Source: an uncultured Corynebacterium sp.
Lineage (GTDB): Bacteria; Actinomycetota; Actinomycetes; Mycobacteriales; Mycobacteriaceae
Direction of reading: 5' to 3'
Assembly: GCA_943913645.1 (NCBI GenBank)
Contig: CALTYZ010000003.1
Coordinates: 37,825 to 101,824 of the forward strand
DNA length: 64,000 bases
Shown: piece after piece, positions 1-13,665 of the stretch
Numbering within the stretch: position 1 is the stretch's first letter
How the letters are laid out: every line of letters begins with the position of its first letter
Made by a program: the position numbers and the translations under genes
The notes under the pieces: model-generated
What the model saw: only the letters and a program-made list of their open reading frames with translations
Database searches by the model: none
What the model was told of the DNA's origin: nothing

Positions 1-704
1 CCCCGGCGAAAATGACCACCACCAGACCAATTGCAACCCAGTTCGCTACCTTCGCGTATTGCTCAAGGACGAACACCACCGGCTCGCCGATCATCCACCC
101 CAGGCCGAAGTAGAGCAGGGACCATACGGTTTTGGAGATGAAGTCAAGCACCATGAATTTCCACAGCGGCATGCCAGTCATGCCCATGAGCACGAAAACC
201 ACGAACGCGATCGGCAGGGGAATTGGCACATAGGCCAAAAAGATGCCGAGCCACCCGAGGCGCAGTGCCCAGCCTTCAACTCGTGCGATGTTTTTGGCTG
301 CGCGCGGCGAGTTAGCAGCCTGTACGTCGAGGATGCCGCGCCCCCACAATTTGCCCGCCCACCAGTAGATCCAGTCAAACTTGATCGCCACAAGCGACCC
401 GATGAGTAGGTACAACCACCAATGCGGTGCTTGGCCCACGCCGGCAAGCGCCCCGGTTGAGGCCGCACCGACTCGTGAGCCGGTCAGTGCGAGCATGATC
501 GGCGGATCAAGACCTAGCAGCCAGGCGCGCAGCGGGATCATGGCCAGGCCGAATATCCCAACGAACCCGAACCAGCCGAGACACCAATAGTCTTGTCTGG
601 TGGGCTTGGAATTCCAGGGCAAGCTGGCGTCTTCCCACCACTCCTTTTCCACTGTGTCGGCCTCGGAGGCGCGCTCGGTCGGCTCCTGCGCGTTGTTCGT
701 CATA
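1..704 (-). CDS. DedA/VTT-family integral membrane protein (partial; C-terminal part continues beyond window start)
   Basis: Open minus-strand frame from ATG at 702-704 to window edge with no stop. Translation MTNNAQEPTE...GWLGIFLAYVPIPLPIAFVVFVLMGMTGMPLWKFMVLDFISKTVWSLLYFGLGWMIGEP is typical of the DedA/SNARE-associated (VTT) family. Absent from ORF track because it runs off the edge. Confidence 0.55.
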
Positions 705-739
705 GGTGATCAACCTAGTGCACGCGCACACGAACCGAG

Positions 740-2161
740 TTACAAGGTACGTGCGAGCAGCTGCTTGGCAGCATCGCGCGCCTGCGCAATGACTGCTGGC
801 ACCCCCACACCGCTGACCCAGGATCCAACTGCGGAAATGCCTTGAGGCAACTGCTCCATAACGGTGGAGACAGTGGCCAGGTGGTGTTCGTCATAACGCG
901 GCAGGCCGCCGAACCAACGCTGAACATAGATCTCTTCCAGCCCCTTGTCGCGGCCGTTGAAACCGGTGATGGTTTGCAGGTCATCAAGAGCCCAGTCAAC
1001 GAGGTCGTCCTCACTGGCTCGCAGGGCGATGTCCTCGCCGAAACGGCCGAAGCTGGCGCGCACCAACGCCCCGTCGCGACGAGCAAGGTGTGGCCATTTG
1101 CGCGATGAGAAGGTAAATGCCTTCGCGCGCACATCGGTCTGGCCCGCCGCGACGAGCACACCGGAGTTTTCTGGCAGTCCCTCATCGGTGGCAAAACGCA
1201 TGCCGACTACCGCCGAGTTAGCCAACTTCACTGTTGCCAGGGCGGCAGACGCCTCCGGTGCAACCTGTTTGCACAGCAGGGCGGCAGTCGGTGCCGGCAC
1301 AGCGACAACAACGTGGTCGTAAACACGCTCGCGCCCAGCTTCGTCGCGCTCGCCGCCTTTGAGTGTGAAACCTTCACCGTGGCGTGCAATGCCGGAGATG
1401 AACGCGTCAATGTAGATATCGGCACCGGATTGTTCCGCCAGGGCTTCGTAGAGTTCCTGGTAGCCGTCCCGAAACGCGTTGAACACTGCGCCTTGGCCGG
1501 TGGGAAGCTCAGCGCGCGCCTGCTCCAAGTTTCGCACCGCCACCGAGAGATGCACCGCCGCGCTTTCGCCTTCGGCTGCCCCATCCGCACTGGCGAGTCG
1601 GTCAAATTCGGCTGCAAGCTGCGGAATCGTTGCGCGCACACCGAGGTCATCCGCCGCACATGAGTACACCCCACCAAGCAAGGAGGTGACAAGCGTGTCG
1701 ACTACTTCGTCGCCGTAGCGTTCGCGCACAAGCGTGCCGACGTTCACGTCACCGCCCACAGTCCACGCAAATCCCGGCTGGCTGCCTTCGGCGTCTATAC
1801 GCGCCGCCGTTTCTGCTGACACGAGGTGCGCAACCGGCGCGGAAGACGCAGGAATCCCCATGATCCCGGCACGTGGCAGCGGCTCGCAGCGACCGTCCAC
1901 GTAGACCAGCGAGCCCAGCCCGGAGGGTTCCACCAACGAGTCCCCCAGCCCCAGCTCGGTGAAGAAAGCTACGGCGTCGGTTCGGCGTGCCATGAACGCC
2001 TCTGCACCCATGTCAGTCGGGCCTGCTTCAAACGGGACGGTGAGCAGTTTGCCGCCGACACGGTCGGTGGCCTCGAAAATGTCAACTGCGTGACCCGAGT
2101 CGCGCAGCTCATACGCGCAGGTCAGACCCGCTAGGCCGGCACCGATGATCGCTACTCGCAC
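740..2161 (-). CDS. hemY: protoporphyrinogen/coproporphyrinogen III oxidase, FAD-dependent (HemY/CgoX)
   Basis: 473 aa; N-terminal FAD Rossmann motif VAIIGAGLAGLTCAYEL (GxGxxG). Lies directly downstream of hemE as in actinobacterial hem clusters. GTG start. Confidence 0.8.
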   Translation of the reverse strand: MRVAIIGAGLAGLTCAYELRDSGHAVDIFEATDRVGGKLLTVPFEAGPTDMGAEAFMARRTDAVAFFTELGLGDSLVEPSGLGSLVYVDGRCEPLPRAGIMGIPASSAPVAHLVSAETAARIDAEGSQPGFAWTVGGDVNVGTLVRERYGDEVVDTLVTSLLGGVYSCAADDLGVRATIPQLAAEFDRLASADGAAEGESAAVHLSVAVRNLEQARAELPTGQGAVFNAFRDGYQELYEALAEQSGADIYIDAFISGIARHGEGFTLKGGERDEAGRERVYDHVVVAVPAPTAALLCKQVAPEASAALATVKLANSAVVGMRFATDEGLPENSGVLVAAGQTDVRAKAFTFSSRKWPHLARRDGALVRASFGRFGEDIALRASEDDLVDWALDDLQTITGFNGRDKGLEEIYVQRWFGGLPRYDEHHLATVSTVMEQLPQGISAVGSWVSGVGVPAVIAQARDAAKQLLARTL

Positions 2162-3223
2162 TTACGCCTCCTCGCTGAGATGCTCGTGGATGATGCGCAC
2201 TGCCTCGGTGATCGCGTCTGCGTCGGTGGTTGGCAGCACCCCGTGGCCCAGGTTGAAAATGTGCCCGGTTGCAGCACCGCTGGCGATGGCGCGCGCCGCC
2301 TCAGCCTTAATCCGAGTCACCTCGGCGCGCACCACCTCGGTCCCGGCGAACAACATTGCGGGATCCAAGTTGCCCTGCAGCACCCGCGGGGATGTAAAGC
2401 GCGTCGCAGCTATGTCGAGTGGCACACGCCAATCCACCCCCATCACTTCTGAGCCGGCCTCCGACATCGCGCCGAGTAGCTCTCCTGTGGTGACACCGAA
2501 ATGGATGCGGGGGATTTCTCCTGCCACGGATTCGAGGATCTGCGTGGAGTATGGCAGGACGTGGTCGCGGTAGTCGCGCTCAGTTAAAAATCCTGCCCAC
2601 GAGTCGAACAGTTGCATGGCATCAATGCCAGCGTCGACTTGTGTGCGCAAAAAAGCGGTGATGGTGGGCACGAGTTTTTCCATCAGTGCATGCCAGGTGT
2701 CCGGCTCTGCGTGCATCATGGCTTTTGTGCGCTCATGGTTTTTACTCGGCCCGCCTTCGATAAGGTAGCTAGCCAGGGTAAACGGCGCGCCGACAAAACC
2801 GATGAGCGCCTGCGTATCGGTGAGCTCCTCCAGGATGATCGCAATGCCTTGTGCAACCTCAGCCACGTCGTGGTCCAACACCGGCAGGGCGGCAACATCG
2901 CGCTGATCCCGCACGGGTTGCGCCACCACCGGGCCCTTACCAGGCACAATTCCTACCTCTATGCCTGCGGCTTTGAGCGGAACCACGATGTCAGAAAACA
3001 AAATCGCCGCGTCAACGTCGTGGCGGCGCACCGGCTGGAGGGTAATCTCGGCGAGCAGCTCGGGCATGAAGCACGACTCAAGCATGAGGATGCCCTCTCG
3101 CACCTGGCGGTACTCCGGCAGGGAGCGGCCCGCCTGGCGCATGAACCACACCGGGGTGCGCGACGGTGTGTGCCCGTGGGCGGCTGCGATGAACGGGGCG
3201 GTAGAAAGGTCGCGTCTAGTCAT
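2162..3223 (-). CDS. hemE: uroporphyrinogen decarboxylase
   Basis: Signature PVWFMRQAGRSLPEYR near N-terminus. Start trimmed to internal ATG (MTRRDLS..., cat at 3221-3223) matching family N-terminus; the longer track ORF to 3283 would overlap the upstream gene by 41 nt. Confidence 0.85.
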   Translation of the reverse strand: MTRRDLSTAPFIAAAHGHTPSRTPVWFMRQAGRSLPEYRQVREGILMLESCFMPELLAEITLQPVRRHDVDAAILFSDIVVPLKAAGIEVGIVPGKGPVVAQPVRDQRDVAALPVLDHDVAEVAQGIAIILEELTDTQALIGFVGAPFTLASYLIEGGPSKNHERTKAMMHAEPDTWHALMEKLVPTITAFLRTQVDAGIDAMQLFDSWAGFLTERDYRDHVLPYSTQILESVAGEIPRIHFGVTTGELLGAMSEAGSEVMGVDWRVPLDIAATRFTSPRVLQGNLDPAMLFAGTEVVRAEVTRIKAEAARAIASGAATGHIFNLGHGVLPTTDADAITEAVRIIHEHLSEEA

Positions 3224-3242
3224 GGTGTTCAACCCTACTGGC

Positions 3243-5852
3243 CTACTGGGGGAAACGGCGCGCACCCACTGAGCGGTATTCAATGATCAGCGAGCTGCCC
3301 AGCATGAGCAGTGTCGCCCCCATCGGCGGCAGCACTCCGGAGACAGCCAGGATCACCGCAACCACGTTGTATACCCCCGCGAACAGCATGTTGGTGTCGA
3401 TGATGCGGGAGACCCGCCGGCCGTGTTCGAGAAGCTGGGGTACGGCGGTGACGTCATCACGCATGAGCAGCGCATCGGCTGCCATCTCGGTGCGTTTGAA
3501 GCCCATGTCGAAGAACTCGTCTTCGGCGTAGAGCACCCCCACGTCTGCTACCGCGATGGTGTCCATCACTGAGGCGTTGCCCACCATGAGCACGTTCGCG
3601 CCCCGGGTGTGCAGTTGACGGACCGCGCCTGGTTTCTCCTGCGCGGTAATACCTGCCAGTACGGAGGTGATGCCTAACATGTCCGCGAACCGGCGGGCCA
3701 CGGGGTAGGTGTCGCGGGTGAGCATCACCGTGGTGGCCCCCATTGACTCCAGGCGGTCAATTGCGCTGATTGCGTCGAATTTAGCCGAGTCATGCAGGGT
3801 GATCACGCCGCGGTCTTTGCCCTTCCAGCGCACAATCACCGGCGTGCCACCGGTGGTGGCGGCAAGCGCCAACCGGCCGGTGAGCTGAGACAGGTTCGTC
3901 GGGCGCCACAGTTTTGCTTCCAAGCTAGTGGTTTGGTCTTCATCGGGGTCTTCAGACGCGGCGGAACGACGCACCACCACTTTTCCTTCGCAGCCACCAT
4001 CAGGAAGCATCTGCGCAGACTCCACTTCCACACGCCACGGCAGACCAAAGCCTTTCGCCTCGCGCGCGGCCTCAACAATGGCACGCGCCGCCGGGTGGTT
4101 GGAGTCAACAACGAGAGCCGCAGCCACCAGCAGCACAAAGTCTGTTTCCTCACCGCGGGCAGCGGTGACGGTTTCGACTGTCATTTCCGGCTCCACAATG
4201 GTGCCGACCCGGTTGAAGACCACCGTGTCCACGTCGTCGAGCCGTCGCAGCGCCGCGCCATCACGCACCAGGATTCCGTTGCGCGCCGCAGCCTCAATGC
4301 CATTGCGCGTAGCCAGTGCGGGAGAGATCGCCAACGCCACTGGTGCAACAACCGCCAAGATAGCCAGAGCGGTAGAAAATGCCGCGTTGTAGTCCCCAGT
4401 GAGCAACAGCCACATGGAAAAGTCCACAACCGCGATCACGTAGGCGGCGGGGATCAGCATGCTCGCGGATTTCGTGGAGAGCATCGTCGCCGCGTTCTGA
4501 CGTTTCGACGCATCCGATACCCACCTGCTCACCGCCGCCCAGTGCGTGGCGTGGCCGGTGCGTTGGGCACGAACTTTGACACTGCCGTGTTGGATGACCG
4601 AACCAGCCGCGACGTGATCGCCGACGGTAACCGCGGGGGTAAAGGGGGCGTCGATAAGCAAATGGCTCAAACGCGCGCTGCCGCCGACGACTTCCCCGTC
4701 AAGTGGAACGATGTCTCCGCGTCGCAGCTCAATGTCGTCTCCCCGGTTGATCTCTGACAAAGGCAGGATCTCTGGGCTTTGTTTGCCGCGCCGCATGACC
4801 CGATACGGCTGCTCGGACGCGGGGGTGACACGTTGCATGCGCCCCACGAGACTCTCGCCGATGCGTTTCGTGTTAGAACGTCCCACCAGCAGCAATAAAG
4901 TGACACCGCAGGCAACGTCGAGAAAGATTTCGACCTCGCTGCCGCGGCGCGTGGGCATCCACCCGCCGCTTGAGATCCACCCGATATCGCCTGCCGGAGT
5001 AAACAACAGTGCACCAACAGACCAGATGTAGGCGGCGAGGACTGCGATCGAGCTGGCACCATCAAGTGCGGACATGCCGCGACGCACCCCGCCCGCCATC
5101 GCACGGTGAAACGGCCACGCGCACCACAGCGCCACCGGGGTGGCAAGCGCGAAGCAGATCCACTGCCAGCCATCGAACTGCAATTCGGGCAGGTAGCTCA
5201 GCACAATCACCGGGATGGAAAACAACACGGCCACAGCAAGCCGGGCCGGGGTGACCAACTCACGCGAGGTGAAGAGCACGTCATTGTTGCTGGTCTCGCG
5301 CACGGTGCGGCGGGCGAACCCCGCCTCGCGCGCGGCGGTGAGGTCTTGCTTCGCGTGTTGGCGGCGGCGTCGAATCCGCCCGGACATGCCCCGGGTGCTG
5401 CGCCGCGGTGAGCGACGTTCAATGCCTTGGCGGCGAATCAGGTGCCGGCGCAGCGTCGACTCTGTCATCGTGGCGCGCACACCGAACTCGCCGATGACAT
5501 CCACCAGGCGCTGTGGGTCGAGTTCAACAGGGGCTGTGACCCACGCTGTGCAGGTGGTGTAGACGAAGTGGGCGGACACACCCGGAATGGCCTCAAGCGC
5601 GGCCTCGATCACGCCGAGCTGTGGGCCATCTTTGATCCCCTCTAAATCGAAGGCGTACGAGGCGTTGGAGCGAGTGTAGCCATCATCGCCGCTACCGGAG
5701 ATGCCGTCCGGGTTGATGCCGGCGGCCAGTGCCGCATCGCGCGCCTGGGAGATGGAAATCTCGAGCTCATCTGCTGCATCGGTTGCAGTAGTTGCCTTGA
5801 CACTGGGCTCATCGAACGTTTGTGACACCTCTTCCTCCACGGATTCGTTCAC
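3243..5852 (-). CDS. P1B-type (heavy-metal) P-type ATPase homologue with degenerate catalytic motifs (likely non-catalytic)
   Basis: 869 aa with overall P1B-ATPase architecture. It has an HMA-like N-terminal fold (GVSAHFVYTTCTAWVTAP) without a CxxC motif. The actuator-like region GDIVPLDGEVVGGSARL...VGDHVAAGSVIQHGSVKVRAQRTG is present. The TM6 CPC position reads APV (AVVAPVALAISPALATRNGIEAAARNGILVRDG). The phosphorylation motif DKTGT reads NRVGT (VDTVVFNRVGTIVEP). The hinge GDGxND reads GNASVMD. It is a single intact ORF. Confidence 0.6.
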   Translation of the reverse strand: MNESVEEEVSQTFDEPSVKATTATDAADELEISISQARDAALAAGINPDGISGSGDDGYTRSNASYAFDLEGIKDGPQLGVIEAALEAIPGVSAHFVYTTCTAWVTAPVELDPQRLVDVIGEFGVRATMTESTLRRHLIRRQGIERRSPRRSTRGMSGRIRRRRQHAKQDLTAAREAGFARRTVRETSNNDVLFTSRELVTPARLAVAVLFSIPVIVLSYLPELQFDGWQWICFALATPVALWCAWPFHRAMAGGVRRGMSALDGASSIAVLAAYIWSVGALLFTPAGDIGWISSGGWMPTRRGSEVEIFLDVACGVTLLLLVGRSNTKRIGESLVGRMQRVTPASEQPYRVMRRGKQSPEILPLSEINRGDDIELRRGDIVPLDGEVVGGSARLSHLLIDAPFTPAVTVGDHVAAGSVIQHGSVKVRAQRTGHATHWAAVSRWVSDASKRQNAATMLSTKSASMLIPAAYVIAVVDFSMWLLLTGDYNAAFSTALAILAVVAPVALAISPALATRNGIEAAARNGILVRDGAALRRLDDVDTVVFNRVGTIVEPEMTVETVTAARGEETDFVLLVAAALVVDSNHPAARAIVEAAREAKGFGLPWRVEVESAQMLPDGGCEGKVVVRRSAASEDPDEDQTTSLEAKLWRPTNLSQLTGRLALAATTGGTPVIVRWKGKDRGVITLHDSAKFDAISAIDRLESMGATTVMLTRDTYPVARRFADMLGITSVLAGITAQEKPGAVRQLHTRGANVLMVGNASVMDTIAVADVGVLYAEDEFFDMGFKRTEMAADALLMRDDVTAVPQLLEHGRRVSRIIDTNMLFAGVYNVVAVILAVSGVLPPMGATLLMLGSSLIIEYRSVGARRFPQ

Positions 5853-5856
5853 AGTT

Positions 5857-6351
5857 TTAGCTCACGCCACGCCAGGGGTTGCCGCTGCGCTCGTCGACAA
5901 AGGCGTTCGCCGCGGGGCGAAACAACGCGAAGATCGCAATGACAAGCAGCACAACGATGAAAATCGCAGCCCACGATGCAACCTGGACGAAAAACCCGGC
6001 AAAGTTCACAAACACGGCCAGGCCAACAAACAACCCTGCCCAGCGCCGAGCTAGTCGAGAACCCCGCTGAACATAGACGGCGCAGGCAGCCAAGCACAGC
6101 GCAAGCACGATGTTGCTGACAGCAACGATGCGCATATTGGTGCGAAACGACGCCGCCACCTGCGTATCCAGGGCTTCAGGGACTCCGGCTTGAAGCATCA
6201 GCAATGCCGTCAGCACCATCAGCACAGCGGCAATCATGATCAGCCAGTAGGCGACACGCAGCGCCGGCGGCCAGGTCGGCCCTACCGGCACCCTATGGCG
6301 ACGGTTCAAATCATTGCGATTTGGCACCATTGTTGGAAACATGCGCGCCAT
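5857..6351 (-). CDS. hypothetical integral membrane protein
   Basis: 164 aa, 4 predicted hydrophobic helices (IMIAAVLMVLTALLML, IVLALCLAACAVYV, FVGLAVFVNFAGFFV, IFIVVLLVIAIFALF); sits in hem cluster between hemB and hemE like conserved membrane genes in corynebacteria. Confidence 0.45.
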   Translation of the reverse strand: MARMFPTMVPNRNDLNRRHRVPVGPTWPPALRVAYWLIMIAAVLMVLTALLMLQAGVPEALDTQVAASFRTNMRIVAVSNIVLALCLAACAVYVQRGSRLARRWAGLFVGLAVFVNFAGFFVQVASWAAIFIVVLLVIAIFALFRPAANAFVDERSGNPWRGVS

Positions 6352-7001
6352 TAGCTGCCTCCAGGTGGGTTCGCCCCACCTGGCCGGTCATGTGAGCGGC
6401 CCTCAGGCGGGGCCGCCGCCTGCGCATACGCCACCGACTCCTTTTGGGAGGCGTAGAACACGCCAAGGACTCCCGCCACGGCAAGCATGATCTGGATGAT
6501 CCCGTCGAAGGCATAAAACGCCACCGGGATGGAGCTCGAAGCGGGCTGCGTCACAAACAGTGTCAGTGCCCGCAGCGCGAAAAAGATGGCAAAGATTTGC
6601 AGCAGACGCCGCGCGTTCGGTGCCCATTTTCGTTGCTTGGCCAGCGCATGAAGCGCAACCGCAAAGAGTGCGATCACCGCCAACTGGAGAAGCGCCATAA
6701 ACACCACTGACCCAATGAGACCGAGCGACATCATCGCATCAGTCAGGTCCTCACCGCGTGCTTTGGCGGCTGCGCGGGCTGATTCCTTCAGCGCCGCCGG
6801 GTCTAGCACCGTTGAGATCACGGTGAGGATTTGGTGCAGCAGTTCCCCGGCGATCATCACCACCCAGCAGGTGAGCATGTAGCGCACCGCTTCGGGCCGT
6901 TCGTTGTCAGAACCCTTGGGACCGTTGCTTGTTGACGTCTGCGTCGCAGCTGGTGCCACGTGACTGCCCGAATTCGGGTTCATTGGCGGCAAACTCACCA
7001 T
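6351..7001 (-). CDS. hypothetical integral membrane protein
   Basis: 216 aa, multiple hydrophobic helices (MLTCWVVMIAGELL, LGLIGSVVFMALLQLAVIALFAVALHAL, IFAIFFALRALTLFV, IIQIMLAVAGVLGVFY); stop/start overlap with the downstream membrane gene at 6351. Confidence 0.45.
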   Translation of the reverse strand: MVSLPPMNPNSGSHVAPAATQTSTSNGPKGSDNERPEAVRYMLTCWVVMIAGELLHQILTVISTVLDPAALKESARAAAKARGEDLTDAMMSLGLIGSVVFMALLQLAVIALFAVALHALAKQRKWAPNARRLLQIFAIFFALRALTLFVTQPASSSIPVAFYAFDGIIQIMLAVAGVLGVFYASQKESVAYAQAAAPPEGRSHDRPGGANPPGGS

Positions 7002-7025
7002 GTCCTCTCCTTCACAGCCCAGTCC

Positions 7026-8081
7026 TTAGAGCCCGGCGGACTCGCGTAGTGCGTTCGCCGCCTCGATGGCATAGTAGGTGAGAATTTGCTCGGCCCCGGC
7101 CCGTTTGATGGATATCAGTGCCTCCATCATTGCCTCGTGGAATTCGATCCAGCCGTTTTGGCCGGCGGCGACCAGCATGGCGTATTCGCCGGAGACCTGG
7201 TAGGCCGCAACAGGCACGGGCGAGAGTTCAGCGACTTGGTGCAGCACATCAAGGTATGGCAGGGCTGGTTTGACCATGACAAAATCTGCGCCTTCGTCGA
7301 TATCGAGCTGTGCTTCTAACAGCGATTCGCGCGTGTTTGCCGGGTCTTGTTGGTAGGTGCGGCGATCACCGGTGAGCGACGAGCCGACCGCGTCACGGAA
7401 CGGGCCGAAGAATTTGGAGGCGTACTTGGCGGAATACGCCATGATTGCCACGTCTGTGTAGCCGTTTGCGTCCAACGCCTCACGGATGAGACCGACTTGG
7501 CCGTCCATCATGCCTGATGGGCTGACAATGTGGGCGCCGGCTGCGGCCTGCGCAACCGCCATCGCACAGTAATGGCTCAGCGTGGCATCGTTGTCTACTT
7601 GTTCGCGTCCCCACCGGTCGGTGGTGAGCACACCGCAGTGGCCGTGGTCGGTGAACTCATCGAGGCAGGTATCTGCCATGATGAGCAGGTCATCGCCGAA
7701 CTCTTCTCGCAGTGCGCGCAGGTTGCGGTTGAGCACCCCGTCTTCATCTCGCGCCGGAGAGCCATCAGCGTCTTTGTCTTGCTCCAGCGGCACACCGAAC
7801 AGGTCCACGCAGCTCACCCCGGCCTCAAGGGCGCTGTGGCACATGGCCTTGAGGCTGTCCGTGGTGTGCTGGTACACCCCCGGCATCGAGGGGATCTCGC
7901 GGCGCTCGGTGATGCCATCGGCGACAAACAGCGGCAGGATGAAATCCGCCGGGTGCAGTCGTGTCTGTGCAGTCAGCTCACGTATGCGCAGGTTTTGGCG
8001 CAGGCGTCGGGGGCGGCGCGGCAAGCTCACACTGAGCTCAACCGCAGGGTCAGTATGGGGGTCAAAAGACATGCATCCCAT
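7026..8081 (-). CDS. hemB: porphobilinogen synthase (delta-aminolevulinate dehydratase)
   Basis: 351 aa; RRPRRLRQN...LPLFV N-terminal region, GVSCVDLFGVP, active-site Lys region FVMVKPALPYLDV. Start could alternatively be ATG at 8072 (MSFDPH...). Confidence 0.85.
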   Translation of the reverse strand: MGCMSFDPHTDPAVELSVSLPRRPRRLRQNLRIRELTAQTRLHPADFILPLFVADGITERREIPSMPGVYQHTTDSLKAMCHSALEAGVSCVDLFGVPLEQDKDADGSPARDEDGVLNRNLRALREEFGDDLLIMADTCLDEFTDHGHCGVLTTDRWGREQVDNDATLSHYCAMAVAQAAAGAHIVSPSGMMDGQVGLIREALDANGYTDVAIMAYSAKYASKFFGPFRDAVGSSLTGDRRTYQQDPANTRESLLEAQLDIDEGADFVMVKPALPYLDVLHQVAELSPVPVAAYQVSGEYAMLVAAGQNGWIEFHEAMMEALISIKRAGAEQILTYYAIEAANALRESAGL

Positions 8082-8092
8082 CTTAGGACCTG

Positions 8093-9853
8093 CTACTTTC
8101 CGGCCTCGCTGCCTGCTGCGGGCTTTCGCCGAGCGCGACGCTTCTTGCGCGGCGGGGGCAGTTGCCCGGCGGCACGCAGCTCTGCAACGTGGGCAGCTAA
8201 TGCGTCCACCAGCGAAGGCACATCGGCGACTTCTGGGATCACATCAACGCGCAACCCCTGCTCGCGCGCTTCTGCCGCCGCCATCGGGCCGATGCAGGCA
8301 ATGATGGTGCGCTGGTGTGGCTTGCCGGCAATACCAACCAGGTTTTTCACCGTGGATGCGGAGGTAAAGCACACCGCGTCGAAGCCGCCGGATTTGATCA
8401 TGTCGCGCACTTCCGGCGCCGGTGGGGCGGCGCGCACCGTGCGGTAGGCCACCACGTCGTCGACTTCCCAGCCCTTTTCAACCAGACCGTTGACTAACAC
8501 ATCGGTTCCTAAATCAGCGCGCGGCAACAACACGCGCGAGACTGGGTCGATATCCTCCACGTATTCCGGGAAGACCTCAACTAACCCGGCCGCGTTCTGT
8601 TTCGTACGGTGCGGCACTACTTCCGGGAACATGCCCCGGGCGCGCAGCGCATCGGCGGTTTTCTGGCCCACGGCGGCAAGGTGTACACCAGCAAAAGAGC
8701 GGGCATCAAGCCCGAGTTCTTCGAACTTGTCCCAGACCGCGTCCACAGCGTTGGTAGACGTAAACACGACCCACTGGTAGCGGCCCTCCACGATGCCTTT
8801 GATCGCGCGATCCATTTGCGCGGGGTTGCGCGGCGGTTCCATCGAGATGGTTGGCACTGAGTGTGGGATCGCCCCATACGCACCCAGCTGGGCATTCATT
8901 GACCCTGCTTGTTCTTTCGCGCGGGGCACGAGCACTCTCCAGCCGTAGAGCGGCCGGTTTTCCCACCACGAGTATTTCGCACGCTCATCAGGGACAGTGC
9001 CTAAGGTGACCACCAGTGAGCCGGACAGGTCCGCGTCAAGTTTGGCCACGGTTTCTAGTGTTGCGTCGAAGGTGCGCTGCAGCCTCGTTGTGCCATGGGT
9101 GGTCACCGTCACTGGTATTGCGCCGGCGAAACCGCGCTCCATGAGCTGGGTCGCCATGGTTTCAAGATGGGCTTGCACCGCTTGAAACACCAGCGGCTGC
9201 GGCGCGCCAGCTAGCTGGTCCCAGTCCACTGATTCGCTGGTCAAATCGGTTTCAGTGTATGTGGATCCAAGCGCGATACCTGCGAACGACGGCACCGTTG
9301 ACGGCAATGACATTCCTGGTACTACTTGAAATTCCAGCCCGGCTGCGGCCACGGCGGACACTTCTTCCATCACAGAGTCGCGCATCAGCGGGTTGCCGCA
9401 CACGAGCCGGATCACGTCTCCGTCGCCGCCTTCGCCGCGTTCGATCGCTGCGGCGGACTCCTGGAGGGCAGCTTCCAGCTTGTCGACGATCCCTTGCTCA
9501 CCTAATGCCACATCCTCAATCTCTGCGGCTGTGGGCGCTGCCGGGCGGGCCGGTTTGCGTCGTGCTCCTGCTTCTTTCGCTTCGGCGACCAGCGTCTCAT
9601 AGTCAGCGTTGGCCTGCTCCAGCTTCGATTTCGGCACCGGGAGTTGGGCCGCGATGACACTTCGGACCCCCTCAGAGACATCCGGATCAACCAGCGCGAT
9701 AGCATTGGACTCCAATACCTCACGCGCACGGATAGTAAGCAGATCAGGGTTGCCCGGGCCTGCACCGACGAAGATGATCTTTCCCGGCGGGCGCGTGTGG
9801 GGGGACCGCGTAGATGAGGGCAATGTCATGGAATGATCTTTTCTATGGCACAA
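8093..9853 (-). CDS. hemD: bifunctional uroporphyrinogen-III C-methyltransferase / uroporphyrinogen-III synthase (CobA-HemD fusion)
   Basis: 586 aa. N-terminal tetrapyrrole methylase signature IFVGAGPGNPDLLTIRAREVL; the C-terminal half is HemD-like. Fusion is typical of Corynebacterium and Mycobacterium. TTG start in track; alternative ATG at 9829. Confidence 0.8.
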   Translation of the reverse strand: MCHRKDHSMTLPSSTRSPHTRPPGKIIFVGAGPGNPDLLTIRAREVLESNAIALVDPDVSEGVRSVIAAQLPVPKSKLEQANADYETLVAEAKEAGARRKPARPAAPTAAEIEDVALGEQGIVDKLEAALQESAAAIERGEGGDGDVIRLVCGNPLMRDSVMEEVSAVAAAGLEFQVVPGMSLPSTVPSFAGIALGSTYTETDLTSESVDWDQLAGAPQPLVFQAVQAHLETMATQLMERGFAGAIPVTVTTHGTTRLQRTFDATLETVAKLDADLSGSLVVTLGTVPDERAKYSWWENRPLYGWRVLVPRAKEQAGSMNAQLGAYGAIPHSVPTISMEPPRNPAQMDRAIKGIVEGRYQWVVFTSTNAVDAVWDKFEELGLDARSFAGVHLAAVGQKTADALRARGMFPEVVPHRTKQNAAGLVEVFPEYVEDIDPVSRVLLPRADLGTDVLVNGLVEKGWEVDDVVAYRTVRAAPPAPEVRDMIKSGGFDAVCFTSASTVKNLVGIAGKPHQRTIIACIGPMAAAEAREQGLRVDVIPEVADVPSLVDALAAHVAELRAAGQLPPPRKKRRARRKPAAGSEAGK

Positions 9854-9947
9854 ATATGTAACCCGGCGGTTCTACACTGCGCCGGGAAAAGAATAACGAA
9901 TGGTATCTCCACCTTAGGGTGGAACTGCCTGGAAACAAAAACCAGAA

Positions 9948-10856
9948 TTAATTCATAAGCTCGGCTGCGCCGCTGCCCAGCAGCGCAGCCGCGACCTGCT
10001 GGCCAACCTCCACAGGGTTGTCACCTACCGCAGTTTCAACAATCTGTGCCGATCCATCCAGGGCGAAAACACCCCCGGTGAGCGTGATTACCTCATCAGT
10101 AATCTGCGCATATGCCGCCACAGGGGCGGTGCACCCGGCCTCGAGGGTGGCAAGGACTTGCCGCTCTGCTGTTGCCTGGGCGCTGGCGGTGGCATCTGCT
10201 AACCCATCAATCGCCGCACAGGTTTGCGCATCATCGGCGCGACATTCCACCGCAAGCGCGCCCTGCGCTGGGGCCGGCAGTACAGTCTCTGGTGCAAAGA
10301 CCTCTGTTGCGCGGTGCGCATAGCCGCCACGGCTCAACCCGGCGTACGCCAGCACAATGGCGTCGAGTTCACCGGCCTCAACGTAGCCCATCCGGGTTTC
10401 GATGTTGCCGCGCAGCGGGCGAATGTCAAGATCTGGGCGCAGCGCGCGCAGCTGGGAGATCCGCCGAGGTGCCGATGTGCCCACGCGGGCGCCTTGGGGC
10501 AATTGCGCAAGGGTGAGCCCATCGCGGGCGATGAGCGCGTCCCGGTGATCTTCACGCGGCGGAACAATCACATGAGCGCGTGGCTCTGCAGCGGTGGGCA
10601 AATCCTTGTAGGAGTGCACGGCAATATCGACATCCCCCCGAAACAACGCCTCACGCAGCGCCGAGGTAAAAACGCCAACGCCGATGCGCTCCACCGGGGC
10701 TTGCGAAAGGTCACCTGGGGTGGTCACTACTGTGAGTTCAGCTGCGTGCCCGGCGCGTCCGAGCGCATCTCGAACGTGGCCGGCTTGGGTGGTGGCGAGG
10801 TGAGATCCGCGGGTGCCAATCCGCAACATCATGCGCTCCTTTGTGCGGGGGTGCAA
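9948..10856 (-). CDS. hemC: hydroxymethylbilane synthase (porphobilinogen deaminase)
   Basis: [19 protein letters not shown]-terminal signature; cofactor-binding Cys in [12 protein letters not shown]. Confidence 0.85.
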
Positions 10857-10871
10857 GGGTCGGTGTGCAGT

Positions 10872-12194
10872 TTAGTGCAGCTCTTGTGGCAGCGGTAAGC
10901 GTTGTACGTCCACGGCTACCGAGGAGCGTCCAAGGCCGAAGAGTTCTTCAAGCACCATCTCCACACTGACTGTTTCGGAGGAGGCGGCAAGCTCTTTGAT
11001 CTTCACCGTTGGGGTATGCAGCAGCTTGTCGACGATGCGTTTGACGCTGCGGGAAACGAGCTCAAACTCCTCATCGCTCAGATCCGGAAGCTTTGCGCGC
11101 AGCTTGACAAGCTCCTGGTCTTGGACCTCGCTTGCGGTTTGGCGAAGTCTGGCAACTGCTGGTGCGACGTCGCGCATGCGCTGTTGTGAGCTAAACGCCT
11201 CGACTTCTTCGGTGACAATGGCTTGGGCCTGGCGCAGCGCAACCGATTCCGCATCCTCTTCGGCGTGTGTCGCGGCACGTTGGGCGTGCAGGTATTCGAT
11301 GTTGATCAGATGCACCCCGGGGTGGCGGGTGACCTCGTCTGCGATGTCACGCGGCAGTGAAAGGTCAATCAGGACGCCAGGCCCAGAAATGTCCTCGGCG
11401 GTAATGGTGAAGGTGCCTGCCGCAGTTGCGGAGACCGCGATGTCGGCACGCGCCAGTGCGCCGGCGCGAGCGTTGAAATCTACTACCTCTGCCGGTACCC
11501 CCGCCTCGCGGGAGTGTTCGGCCAGCCGTTCTGCTCGTGAGCGGGTCCGGTTGGCCACGATGAGTTTGTCCACCCCGCGTTTGCCGAGCTGGGTGGCGGC
11601 CAGTGAGCTCATCGCCCCGGCGCCTAAGATCAGCGCCGTCGTGCCCGTGAAATCCTTCCGCCCAAGTACAGCGAGCGCCTCATCCAGGGCGAAGCTGACC
11701 ATTGACCCTCCGGAATCATCGATCCCGGTTTCAGCATGCACCCGCTTGCCGGTGTGCAGTGCTGTCTGCGCTAAGGAGTGCAGGGCAGGCCCGACCGAGC
11801 CACGCTCTGTGGCGTCGATGTAGGAAGCGCGCACCTGACCAATGATCTGCTGCTCGCCCACCACCATGGAGTCCAACCCGGAGGCAACCGCGAACATGTG
11901 CTCAGCAGCCGCGTCAGCGTAGCGGACATAAAGGTAGGTTCTCAGCTCTGCCTCGGCAATGCCGGAAATATCGGCCAGGACCTCAAGGACCTCTTGCACC
12001 CCGGTGTGAAACGCGTTGGTCACGCAATAAATCTCGAGGCGGTTGCAGGTGGAGATGATCATGGCCTCACTAATGGAGGGCTGTTCAAGCAGCTCTTCTG
12101 TCGTCCGGTGCTGCACTGCATCGTCCATACTGAGACGTTCCAGCAGTGCAACGGGCGCCGAGCGATGGGACATTCCCACAACAAGTACGCTCAC
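10872..12194 (-). CDS. hemA: glutamyl-tRNA reductase
   Basis: MSVLVVGMSHRSAPVALLERL N-terminus; catalytic Cys motif STCNRLEIY; NADP-binding GAGAMSSLAA. Confidence 0.85.
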   Translation of the reverse strand: MSVLVVGMSHRSAPVALLERLSMDDAVQHRTTEELLEQPSISEAMIISTCNRLEIYCVTNAFHTGVQEVLEVLADISGIAEAELRTYLYVRYADAAAEHMFAVASGLDSMVVGEQQIIGQVRASYIDATERGSVGPALHSLAQTALHTGKRVHAETGIDDSGGSMVSFALDEALAVLGRKDFTGTTALILGAGAMSSLAATQLGKRGVDKLIVANRTRSRAERLAEHSREAGVPAEVVDFNARAGALARADIAVSATAAGTFTITAEDISGPGVLIDLSLPRDIADEVTRHPGVHLINIEYLHAQRAATHAEEDAESVALRQAQAIVTEEVEAFSSQQRMRDVAPAVARLRQTASEVQDQELVKLRAKLPDLSDEEFELVSRSVKRIVDKLLHTPTVKIKELAASSETVSVEMVLEELFGLGRSSVAVDVQRLPLPQELH

Positions 12195-12630: not shown

Positions 12631-13665
12631 ATGGCTGAGCCCAGTGAGCTCCTTGCCCAATGGTCCGTGTCGCATGGCAACCTGCGTCGGTTTTTTGAAG
12701 ATTTGGTGCTGCCCCCACTAGATGAACAAGCCCAGCGGGCTGCGGGTGAGGCAGCCGCAGCCGCCGCGATTGAAGAGACTTTTGGTATCAAGCTCGAAGA
12801 GTTTGCACTTGGGGTTGATTCCGTTGGCGGTGCGTTCGCCACCGCAGGCCGCCGAAAGCTGACCACGCCTGACCCGGCGGTACCTCAGGACGAGGGTGCG
12901 GCCGCATTCTTTGATGTGGATAACACCCTCATTCAGGGCTCCTCGCTCATCCTGCTTGCAGAGGAGCTGGCGAAGCGTCGTTTTATCACCCTGCGGGAAT
13001 TTTTACCCGCGCTGACGAAACAAATCCGCTTCCGTGTCTCCGGGTCCGAAAGCCCCGAAGACATCGCGGCCGGGCGCGAGCAGGCACTTGGGCTGGTGCG
13101 CGGCAAGTCGGTGGCAGAACTGCAGGCGCTGTGCAAGGACATTGTGGAGCGGCAGATGCTGGGCAAAGCCTACACATCCACAATCGACCTGGCCGCAATG
13201 CACATCGCTGCAGGCCAGCAGGTGTGGCTTGTGTCTGCCACCCCGGTGCAGATTGGTCAAGCGCTTGCAGAGCGCCTCGGGTTCACCGGCGCGCTCGGCA
13301 CCGTGGCTGAGGAGAAAAATGGGTTGTTCACCGGCCGGCTCGTCGGCGATATTCTTCACGGGCCCGGCAAGCAGCATGCAGTAGCGGCCCTTGCCGCGAT
13401 TCAGCGCCTTGATTTAGACAAATGCACCGCATACTCGGACAGCATCAACGATTTGCCGATGCTGGAGATGGTCGGCTCCCCGGTGGCTATTAACCCGGAC
13501 CGGGCGTTGCGCCGCCACGCCCAAGCACAGGGCTGGGCGATTCGAGATTACCGCTCAGTGCGACGCCTGGCGCGCTCCTACGCGCTGCCTGTGCTGGTTG
13601 CCGCAGGCATAGCCGGTGGCGCAACATGGGCTGCACGCCGTCGGCGGGGGTACCGGGCGGGGTAG
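12631..13665 (+). CDS. HAD-IB family hydrolase (SerB-like phosphatase domain)
   Basis: 344 aa; HAD motif I FFDVDNTLIQGSS (DxDxT), downstream HAD motifs (SATP..., AYSDSINDLPML); corresponds positionally to mycobacterial Rv0505c. Confidence 0.7.
   Translation: MAEPSELLAQWSVSHGNLRRFFEDLVLPPLDEQAQRAAGEAAAAAAIEETFGIKLEEFALGVDSVGGAFATAGRRKLTTPDPAVPQDEGAAAFFDVDNTLIQGSSLILLAEELAKRRFITLREFLPALTKQIRFRVSGSESPEDIAAGREQALGLVRGKSVAELQALCKDIVERQMLGKAYTSTIDLAAMHIAAGQQVWLVSATPVQIGQALAERLGFTGALGTVAEEKNGLFTGRLVGDILHGPGKQHAVAALAAIQRLDLDKCTAYSDSINDLPMLEMVGSPVAINPDRALRRHAQAQGWAIRDYRSVRRLARSYALPVLVAAGIAGGATWAARRRRGYRAG

Follow-up and report, generated by a model that had tools for sequence, protein, structure and literature searches.

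A catalytically degenerate P1B-type ATPase homologue conserved in the heme biosynthesis locus of Corynebacterium

Introduction

P-type ATPases are defined by an aspartyl-phosphate cycle. In a 64,000-nucleotide (nt) stretch of DNA from an uncultured Corynebacterium sp. (GCA_943913645.1, contig CALTYZ010000003.1, positions 37,825 to 101,824 of the forward strand; "the window" hereafter), the open reading frame (ORF) at 3243..5852, situated in a heme biosynthesis (hem) cluster, encodes a homologue of P1B-type heavy-metal pumps in which the residues of this cycle have been replaced. The protein, which we call the pseudo-ATPase, very probably descends from an actinobacterial P1B-1 Cu+-ATPase and has kept its fold but not its catalysis. 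It would go back to a single origin at the base of Corynebacterium or close to it, and has been under purifying selection since.

The closest described systems are the P1B-1 Cu+-ATPases (3RFU, 7R0G, ATP7B), with which the pseudo-ATPase shares the order HMA, MA-MB, M1-M2, A, M3-M4, P/N, M5-M6 as well as the YN and M..SS signatures, the Pro of CPC, the HP of SEHP, the Lys and the Asp of TGD. Unlike these pumps, it has neither the phosphorylated Asp nor TGE; TGD is missing its Gly, GDGxND its N and D, CPC its two Cys and the HMA domain its CxxC, and the entry Met/Glu/Asp are gone. It also carries an extra N-terminal helix, an Arg-rich linker of about 60 residues and about 70 family-specific fixed residues, and it scores below the NCBIfam cut-off. 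Judged by what it keeps and what it lacks, it is homologous to the P1B-1 Cu+-ATPases without being one of them in function.

One precedent for a degenerate P-type module was retrieved, from the Mycobacteriales: a review notes from AlphaFold models that in CtpH and CtpI of Mycobacterium tuberculosis the N-terminal half is a degenerate P-type ATPase, joined in one polypeptide to a functional half (PMC13460109). The pseudo-ATPase likewise represents a degenerate module kept in a member of this order, but it is free-standing, of P1B rather than P2 type, and has no active partner domain. Our literature search retrieved no description of a free-standing pseudo-P-type ATPase clade, the remark on CtpH/CtpI being the only precedent, and one review of pseudoenzymes does not mention P-type ATPases. 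For the genomic setting, the nearest comparison is HemX, a CcsA-like protein. HemX is encoded in the hemAXCDBL operon of the Bacillota and controls GtrR/HemA levels, a regulatory and not an enzymatic role (PMC10991733). Both are integral membrane proteins encoded inside an early heme biosynthesis operon; the likeness is one of functional analogy only, and the two show no homology.

Gene, domain organization and predicted structure

The pseudo-ATPase gene is encoded on the minus strand, a detail absent from the initial annotation, and its coding sequence of 869 residues opens with a GTG. The first ~27 residues are poorly kept, with no conservation among orthologues, so the true start may be a GTG some codons downstream. 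The initial annotation had described a single uninterrupted frame collinear with CopA-type pumps, and both points were borne out. Pfam assigns E1-E2_ATPase (PF00122) to residues 351-525 (E = 4e-23) and the HAD Hydrolase family (PF00702) to residues 542-771 (E = 6.5e-12), and the best relative of solved structure in a phmmer search, Legionella CopA (3RFU, E = 8e-48), is collinear over residues 202-849. Identity to CopA-type relatives is 28-34%. The NCBIfam model for heavy-metal P-type ATPases, TIGR01525, spans residues 284-861 with 273.8 bits, below its cut-off of 346.25, and TIGR01511 likewise scores 201.8 bits against a cut-off of 397.

An AlphaFold2 (AF2) model built on 60 orthologues (predicted local distance difference test, pLDDT, 85; predicted template modelling score, pTM, 0.73) contains eight transmembrane (TM) helices, at residues 202-220, 229-258, 265-284, 311-331, 466-485, 488-524, 803-838 and 843-865, together with complete A, P and N domains. 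Its Foldseek neighbours are CopA and ATP7B (E 1e-33 to 1e-37), the best matches among solved structures, as well as ZntA and CadA, and it lies nearest to E1-state conformers (7R0G, template modelling score 0.82; 7XUN, 0.74). Helices MA, MB, M1 and M2 occupy residues 201-335 (4848..5252, minus strand), as placed by AF2 and the alignments. M2 reads F-L-D312-V-A-C315-G, in which C315 is invariant in the family and Ala in canonical pumps.

These results bear on whether the frame could be a pseudogene in decay or have arisen by chance. The GC content of ~63% favours long spurious ORFs, but the matches to HMM profiles and solved structures, with E-values of 1e-23 to 1e-48, and the confident AF2 model argue against such an origin, as do uninterrupted orthologues in ~48 named species and strains and a ratio of nonsynonymous to synonymous substitution rates (dN/dS) of 0.06. 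We regard this explanation as having a negligible probability.

The initial annotation had also recognized an HMA-like N-terminal domain without CxxC, which the modelling supports. Although the Pfam HMA profile gave no match to the N-terminus even at E<=10, residues 63-130 (5463..5666, minus strand) adopt the beta-alpha-beta-beta-alpha-beta topology of the HMA fold in the AF2 model and Foldseek comparison. When modelled alone (pLDDT 85), this domain superimposes on the HMA domains of PacS, Ccc2a, ATP7A/B and CopA with template modelling scores of 0.83-0.86 and root mean square deviations of 1.3-1.7 A. It also aligns with the HMA domain of canonical relatives. It is without cysteines, and the metal-binding GMTCxxC is replaced by G72-I-K-D75-G-P-Q78 (5619-5639). 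The model matches the cysteine-free HMA modules that are integrated in the rice NLR receptors Pik and RGA5, where they bind proteins, as well as it matches metal-binding HMA domains. Context and organism are unrelated, but since the rice modules lack CxxC, the fold can evidently work without it. The domain is preceded by a family-specific helix at residues 23-43 (5724..5786, minus strand), which falls in a gap in canonical pumps and in whose region A37, A40, A41 and G45 are conserved, and is followed by the Arg-rich linker (residues 131-200; 5253..5462, minus strand), an insertion relative to canonical CopA with low pLDDT and with conserved positions R136, R175, G178, L193 and T195.

Catalytic and metal-binding motifs

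Motifs were placed by phmmer against 3RFU, by MAFFT alignment with 80 canonical actinobacterial CopA sequences and by Pfam profile coordinates, and the three placements were concordant. The phosphorylation motif DKTGT is replaced by N547-R548-V549-G550-T551 (4200..4214, minus strand), just as first read from the sequence, and N547 occupies the column of the phosphorylated Asp by all three methods, with Asn invariant there in 60-64 orthologues. In the orthologue alignments, the phosphorylation site holds no other acidic residue that is conserved. In helices M3-M4 (4278..4532, minus strand), CPC has become A503-P504-V505 (4338-4346), the APV of the initial annotation; P504 is invariant in the family and the M4 helix remains broken, with a kink at 502-503 in the AF2 model, while the Gly that follows CPC in canonical pumps is replaced by A508. 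The Cu+ entry residues are also lost in the alignments, with L263 for the Met, T328 for the M2 Glu and T460 for the M3 Asp.

The P and N domains span residues 526-800 (3453..4277, minus strand) according to the Pfam, 3RFU and canonical CopA alignments. Here the GDGxND hinge reads G758-N-A-S-V-M-D764 (3561-3581), again as first proposed. The window copy has Asn at the first Asp of this motif, where most orthologues have Asp (GDxSV), and the N and second D, which are Mg2+ ligands, are lost. TGD has become T712-R713-D714 (3711-3719), a loss missing from the initial list. The position of TGE falls in a gapped, variable stretch, LIDAPF (399-404), that is not conserved across the family; the region of the lost TGE loop (LIDAPFT, 4638-4658) lies in the A domain (residues 336-440; 4533..4847, minus strand), the least conserved domain of the protein.

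Other elements persist. SEHP survives as SNHP (584-587; 4092-4103), with H586 and P587 retained in 84% and 97% of the family and its Glu unconserved, and K740 (3633-3635), D714, N821, T551 and G550 are kept as well. The YN signature of P1B-1 pumps in M5 (3366-3371; Y828 in 100% and N829 in 95% of the family) and the M..SS signature in M6 (3291-3305; M850 in 95%, S853 in 72% and S854 in 88%) are both retained in helices M5-M6 (3246..3452, minus strand), which identifies the ancestor as a Cu+ pump. M6 additionally carries a family-specific E858 (3279-3281). In the N domain, a family-specific LWRP occupies residues 648-651, the second Gly of GxG is unconserved, and the position of the G-N pair differs between two alignments. 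A mapping of this adenine-pocket pair to W649-R650 appeared in one alignment and not in the other and was dropped. The initial claim that every catalytic motif is degenerate thus stands for catalysis and fails for YN, M..SS and the HP of SEHP.

The protein cannot run the P-type cycle because the phosphorylated Asp is Asn, because the Mg2+ and phosphate ligands of TGD and GDGxND and the TGE dephosphorylation loop are gone, and because no Cu+ ligands are left in M4 (CPC), at the entry site (Met/Glu/Asp) or in the HMA domain (CxxC). On its residues, it is not a copper pump, and it is almost certainly not an ATPase. That it might still be an active pump with non-canonical residues is very improbable: the intact fold, the kept K740, D714, T551 and G550 and, in the majority of orthologues, a GDGxND motif with its first Asp speak for such a pump, but Asn stands in place of the acyl-phosphate Asp in all main-lineage orthologues examined, Asp being found only in C. 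otitidis, no replacement acidic residue is conserved, TGE is absent and its region variable, and the N and D of GDGxND are lost. Orthologues carry the database names "heavy metal translocating P-type ATPase", "copper-exporting ATPase" and "HAD family hydrolase", and the annotation of the family as pumps is almost certainly wrong.

Phylogeny and selection

Approximately 130 orthologues, uninterrupted and with 43-97% identity, were found in ~48 named Corynebacterium species and strains. The best 120 database homologues (43-97% identity) are all from Corynebacterium, save one labelled Staphylococcus chromogenes. This sequence has the FNRVGTL of a typical family member and bears the database title "HAD family hydrolase [Staphylococcus chromogenes]"; its 288-kb contig probably comes from a mislabelled or contaminant Corynebacterium assembly. 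Homologues share the motif columns FNR[VLM]G[TA], [AG]P[VTPA], [TS]RD, YN and M..SS. The same replacements are fixed in 60-126 orthologues of the main lineage, C. otitidis standing apart, and F546, N547, R548, G550, R713, D714 and K740 are invariant in the 60-sequence alignment. The degenerate motifs are thus themselves conserved. Since the replacements are common to ~130 orthologues, genus-wide and down to 43% identity, they do not represent strain-specific decay, and the orthologues with intact motifs that would have refuted the initial annotation were looked for and not found.

A profile search of 1.84 billion representatives returned ~12 full-length clusters at >=872 bits; the C. otitidis orthologue followed with 530 bits, and the canonical pumps below it scored <=446 bits. 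All 67 of the non-Corynebacterium relatives fetched are canonical, with DKTGT, CPC, TGE and GDGxND, and CxxC was seen in the stretch scanned in all but six of them. In a neighbour-joining tree, all 22 family members included form one clade on a long stem. The gene was present in every Corynebacterium locus fetched, and no stop codons interrupt it in 15 related loci. The deep-branching C. otitidis orthologue (9001-11367 of its locus) keeps the Asp, in LDRSGAL, yet has lost the Lys, the Thr, CPC, TGE, K740 (now R), YN (now YH) and MxxSS. Degeneration was therefore stepwise, with an order of loss that differs between lineages.

A separate case of degeneration was noticed in metagenomic sequences from an environmental actinobacterium (P0148/P0290; Logan/JGI). 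These encode a degenerate CopA with MARSGT and CPT and without TGE or GDGxND, in which TGD is kept. They resemble the pseudo-ATPase in having lost the same catalytic motifs, independently, in an otherwise full-length CopA. P0148 was ruled out as a distant family member, as its nearest relatives are normal pumps at 50% identity and it has no family-specific residues.

To assess selection, we compared the gene with that of a relative at 97% identity (L083), which was taken from a public sequencing run. The two pseudo-ATPase genes differ at 149 nucleotides and 22 residues, with a dN/dS of 0.056, and the neighbouring hemD, hemB, 216-residue TM protein gene, hemE and hemY give 0.04-0.16 in the same comparison; a neighbouring gene for a 164-residue TM protein differs at only 1 nt and is hence uninformative. 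A second close pair of pseudo-ATPases gives 0.085 and deep pairs 0.14-0.33. Every domain is constrained, including the P and N headpiece at 0.03-0.10. These values (0.056 and 0.085), together with the invariance of N547, R548 and R713, uphold the initial view of a maintained protein rather than a decaying pseudogene. The protein is a pseudoenzyme: catalytic residues are missing, and the altered residues are under purifying selection.

Relative to active pumps, constraint has been redistributed among the domains. By mean column conservation, constraint is relaxed in the A domain (0.56 vs 0.71) and higher in the N domain (0.66 vs 0.57), and the TM segments are conserved equally, with low dN/dS. 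Seventy-three positions are >=92% conserved in the family but different from canonical pumps, and many of these are Arg residues around the P-site. They include W104, C315, D373, K426, W444, R516, E520, R524, R530 and R536, as well as L-W-R-P 648-651, Y716, R721, R745, T847 and E858. Read from the alignments, this pattern is one of new constraints acquired, not drift.

The constraint on the membrane domain raises the question of ATP-independent binding or movement of a ligand, with the membrane domain acting as a facilitator, channel or site for a metal or tetrapyrrole and the headpiece as a lid or regulator. P504, Y828, N829, M850 and S854 are kept at 88-100%, M2 has gained an invariant C315 at a distance of one turn from D312, the acidic residue of the exit site, M6 has gained E858 and T847, and the TM segments are as conserved as those of active pumps, at low dN/dS, all of which would suit such a function. 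Both thiolates of the central Cu+ site and all three entry-site residues are lost, however, and C. otitidis keeps the gene despite having lost N829, M850 and SS. We also know of no P-type ATPase that transports without phosphorylation, and overall consider this explanation unlikely.

Genomic context and transcription

The minus-strand run from hemA to hemY has a single direction, with gaps of -1 to 24 nt except for ~94 nt between hemC and hemD. It comprises hemA (12194-10872), hemC (10856-9948), a hemD/cobA fusion of 586 residues (9853-8093), hemB (7026..8081; ALAD by Pfam), genes for two proteins with four TM helices each (4-TM proteins; 216 residues, 6351..7001, and 164 residues, 5857..6351), the pseudo-ATPase gene, hemE (2162..3223; URO-D, probable start ATG 3223) and a gene for a hemY/CgoX-type oxidase (740..2161). 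The two 4-TM genes overlap by 1 nt (ATGA), and the second is separated from the pseudo-ATPase gene by 4 nt. The initial annotation had placed the gene codirectionally between hemB plus two membrane genes and hemE-hemY, which is correct, and had it overlapping or abutting its neighbours, which is not the case for hemE: 19 nt separate the two if hemE starts at ATG 3223. The hemD/cobA product joins a TP_methylase domain (cobA/SUMT-like) to HEM4 (uroporphyrinogen-III synthase), and the same fusion occurs in C. otitidis and L083. No Pfam or NCBIfam family was found for the two 4-TM proteins, which gave only scattered, inconsistent sub-threshold Pfam matches across 8-10 orthologues; these, a lone Tmemb_14 match (E = 0.018) among them, were treated as noise.

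The order hemB, TM, TM, pseudo-ATPase is found in 15/15 related loci (13 Corynebacterium genomes, C. otitidis and L083), and the pair of 4-TM genes sits between hemB and the pseudo-ATPase gene wherever the ORFs of the locus were resolved. hemE-hemY follow directly or within ~3 kb in 10 of the 15 loci. The position of the gene in the hem cluster is thus conserved across the genus. In C. macclintockiae, where hemE-hemY are not adjacent, an opposite-strand gene follows and is itself followed by ccsX-, ccdA-, resB- and ccsB-sized ORFs, named by analogy to the C. otitidis locus.

In C. glutamicum, RNA-seq defines a 14-gene primary operon running from hemD, cg0510-cg0511-cg0512(hemB)-cg0513-cg0514-cg0515-cg0516(hemE)-cg0517-cg0518-...-cg0524(ccsB), with an internal transcription start site (TSS) for cg0515 that gives a 53-nt leader and a GTG start (PMC3890552). 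At ~2.75 kb between cg0514 and hemE, cg0515 is the positional equivalent of the pseudo-ATPase gene. Our literature search found no paper text mentioning cg0515 or NCgl0419 and no description of a P-type ATPase-like gene in a Corynebacterium hem cluster. In the window, a -10-like hexamer, TAGGGT (TAnnnT; 3232..3237, minus strand), lies directly beyond the pseudo-ATPase stop codon and 8 nt before the hemE ATG; as a consensus match, it is possibly compatible with a leaderless hemE promoter like that of C. glutamicum. A promoter and terminator scan of 1-14 kb gave no promoter of the sigma-70 type, and the terminator-like sites that it flagged were all weak and intragenic; an Rfam scan of the same 1-14 kb detected no RNA families.

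The operon also touches on copper. Copper excess in C. glutamicum induces cg0518-cg0524, the distal part of the primary operon (PMC3140484), and one could suppose that the pseudo-ATPase serves as a pseudo-subunit, with an active Cu+-ATPase paralogue or copper handling in general under its control and a position among the hem genes that is a historical accident. Descent from Cu+-ATPases, the frequent regulation of active relatives by pseudoenzymes and the presence of copper-induced genes in the same primary operon as cg0515 speak for this. All copper ligands in the HMA and TM domains are lost, however, cg0515 does not figure in the list of genes with copper induction of 3-fold or more (Table 1, PMC3140484), and no active ATPase gene lies near the pseudo-ATPase gene within the window. 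We therefore judge a regulatory role in copper handling to be improbable.

Some features at the edges of the cluster were also recorded. After hemY, the window carries a gene for a DedA/VTT membrane protein (1-703, minus strand, running off the window edge; PF09335 in the near-identical L083), whereas hemL follows hemY in C. otitidis and C. glutamicum. Upstream of hemA and divergent from it lies a gene for a HAD-family hydrolase (12631-13665, plus strand), as also in C. otitidis (218-1291 of its locus). Outside Corynebacterium, an ATPase gene close to hem genes was seen in a single locus, that of Jonesia quinghaiensis (446-10004 of the locus), in which a canonical CopA (DKTGT, CPC) is encoded ~4 kb downstream of hemC-hemD-hemB-hemL; owing to a divergent regulator-like gene in between, this linkage is probably a coincidence.

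Proposed role

Co-transcription of the positional equivalent in C. glutamicum with hem and cytochrome c maturation genes, and a gene inseparable from the two 4-TM genes, lead us to suggest, tentatively and by analogy with HemX, that the pseudo-ATPase may be a non-pumping, E1-locked membrane protein of the hem/ccs unit. Together with the two 4-TM proteins, it could provide a scaffold for the biogenesis of heme or cytochromes or regulate it post-translationally. The protein would be locked in one E1-like conformation, with the former phosphate pocket filled by the fixed N547, R548 and R713 alongside D714, K740 and extra nearby arginines. This set of Asn, Arg, Arg, Lys and Asp could either satisfy one another in a polar network, by which the P domain is locked, or form an anion-binding pocket. 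The pseudo-ATPase would act together with the two upstream 4-TM proteins, and candidate surfaces for binding proteins or ligands are the still-constrained cytoplasmic headpiece, the HMA domain with its lack of cysteines, the new helix at the N-terminus and the Arg-rich linker.

Several points weigh against a scaffold or regulator of this kind. Corynebacterium genomes are generally highly syntenic, which makes conserved adjacency weak evidence, as it may reflect inheritance and not coupling. hemE-hemY do not follow the gene in five of the 15 loci, a urealyticum/macclintockiae-like group. No heme- or porphyrin-binding motif was identified in the pseudo-ATPase, and the retained YN, M..SS, D312 and P504 could mean a surviving ligand site and transport-like activity. 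Moreover, cg0515 was equated with the pseudo-ATPase by position and size, not by sequence. The C. glutamicum hemE has its own leaderless TSS inside the operon (PMC3890552), at which HrrA binds and represses it (PMC7337898), and cg0513-cg0515 do not appear in the searchable target and expression tables for HrrA and DtxR.

A more specific form of the scaffold or regulator proposal is conceivable, if doubtful, in which the P-type fold has been exapted: in a complex with the two 4-TM proteins, it might bind a tetrapyrrole intermediate or metal, in the Arg-lined pocket or at the M2 Cys site, and pass the ligand between hem enzymes, CgoX and cytochrome c maturation, or gate its transfer. If this were true, no free-standing pseudo-P-type ATPase before it would have been given a role in the cell.

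A genus-wide clade that has lost the aspartyl-phosphate cycle yet is conserved is unusual and would surprise a specialist in P-type ATPases. Its annotation as a pump inflates the number of metal pumps counted in Corynebacterium genomes. Among the members of the genus are C. diphtheriae and C. glutamicum, the latter used industrially to produce heme and porphyrins, and the gene at issue, whose product is an uncharacterized membrane protein, would share a transcript with hemD-hemB-hemE-hemY-hemL and the genes for cytochrome c maturation.

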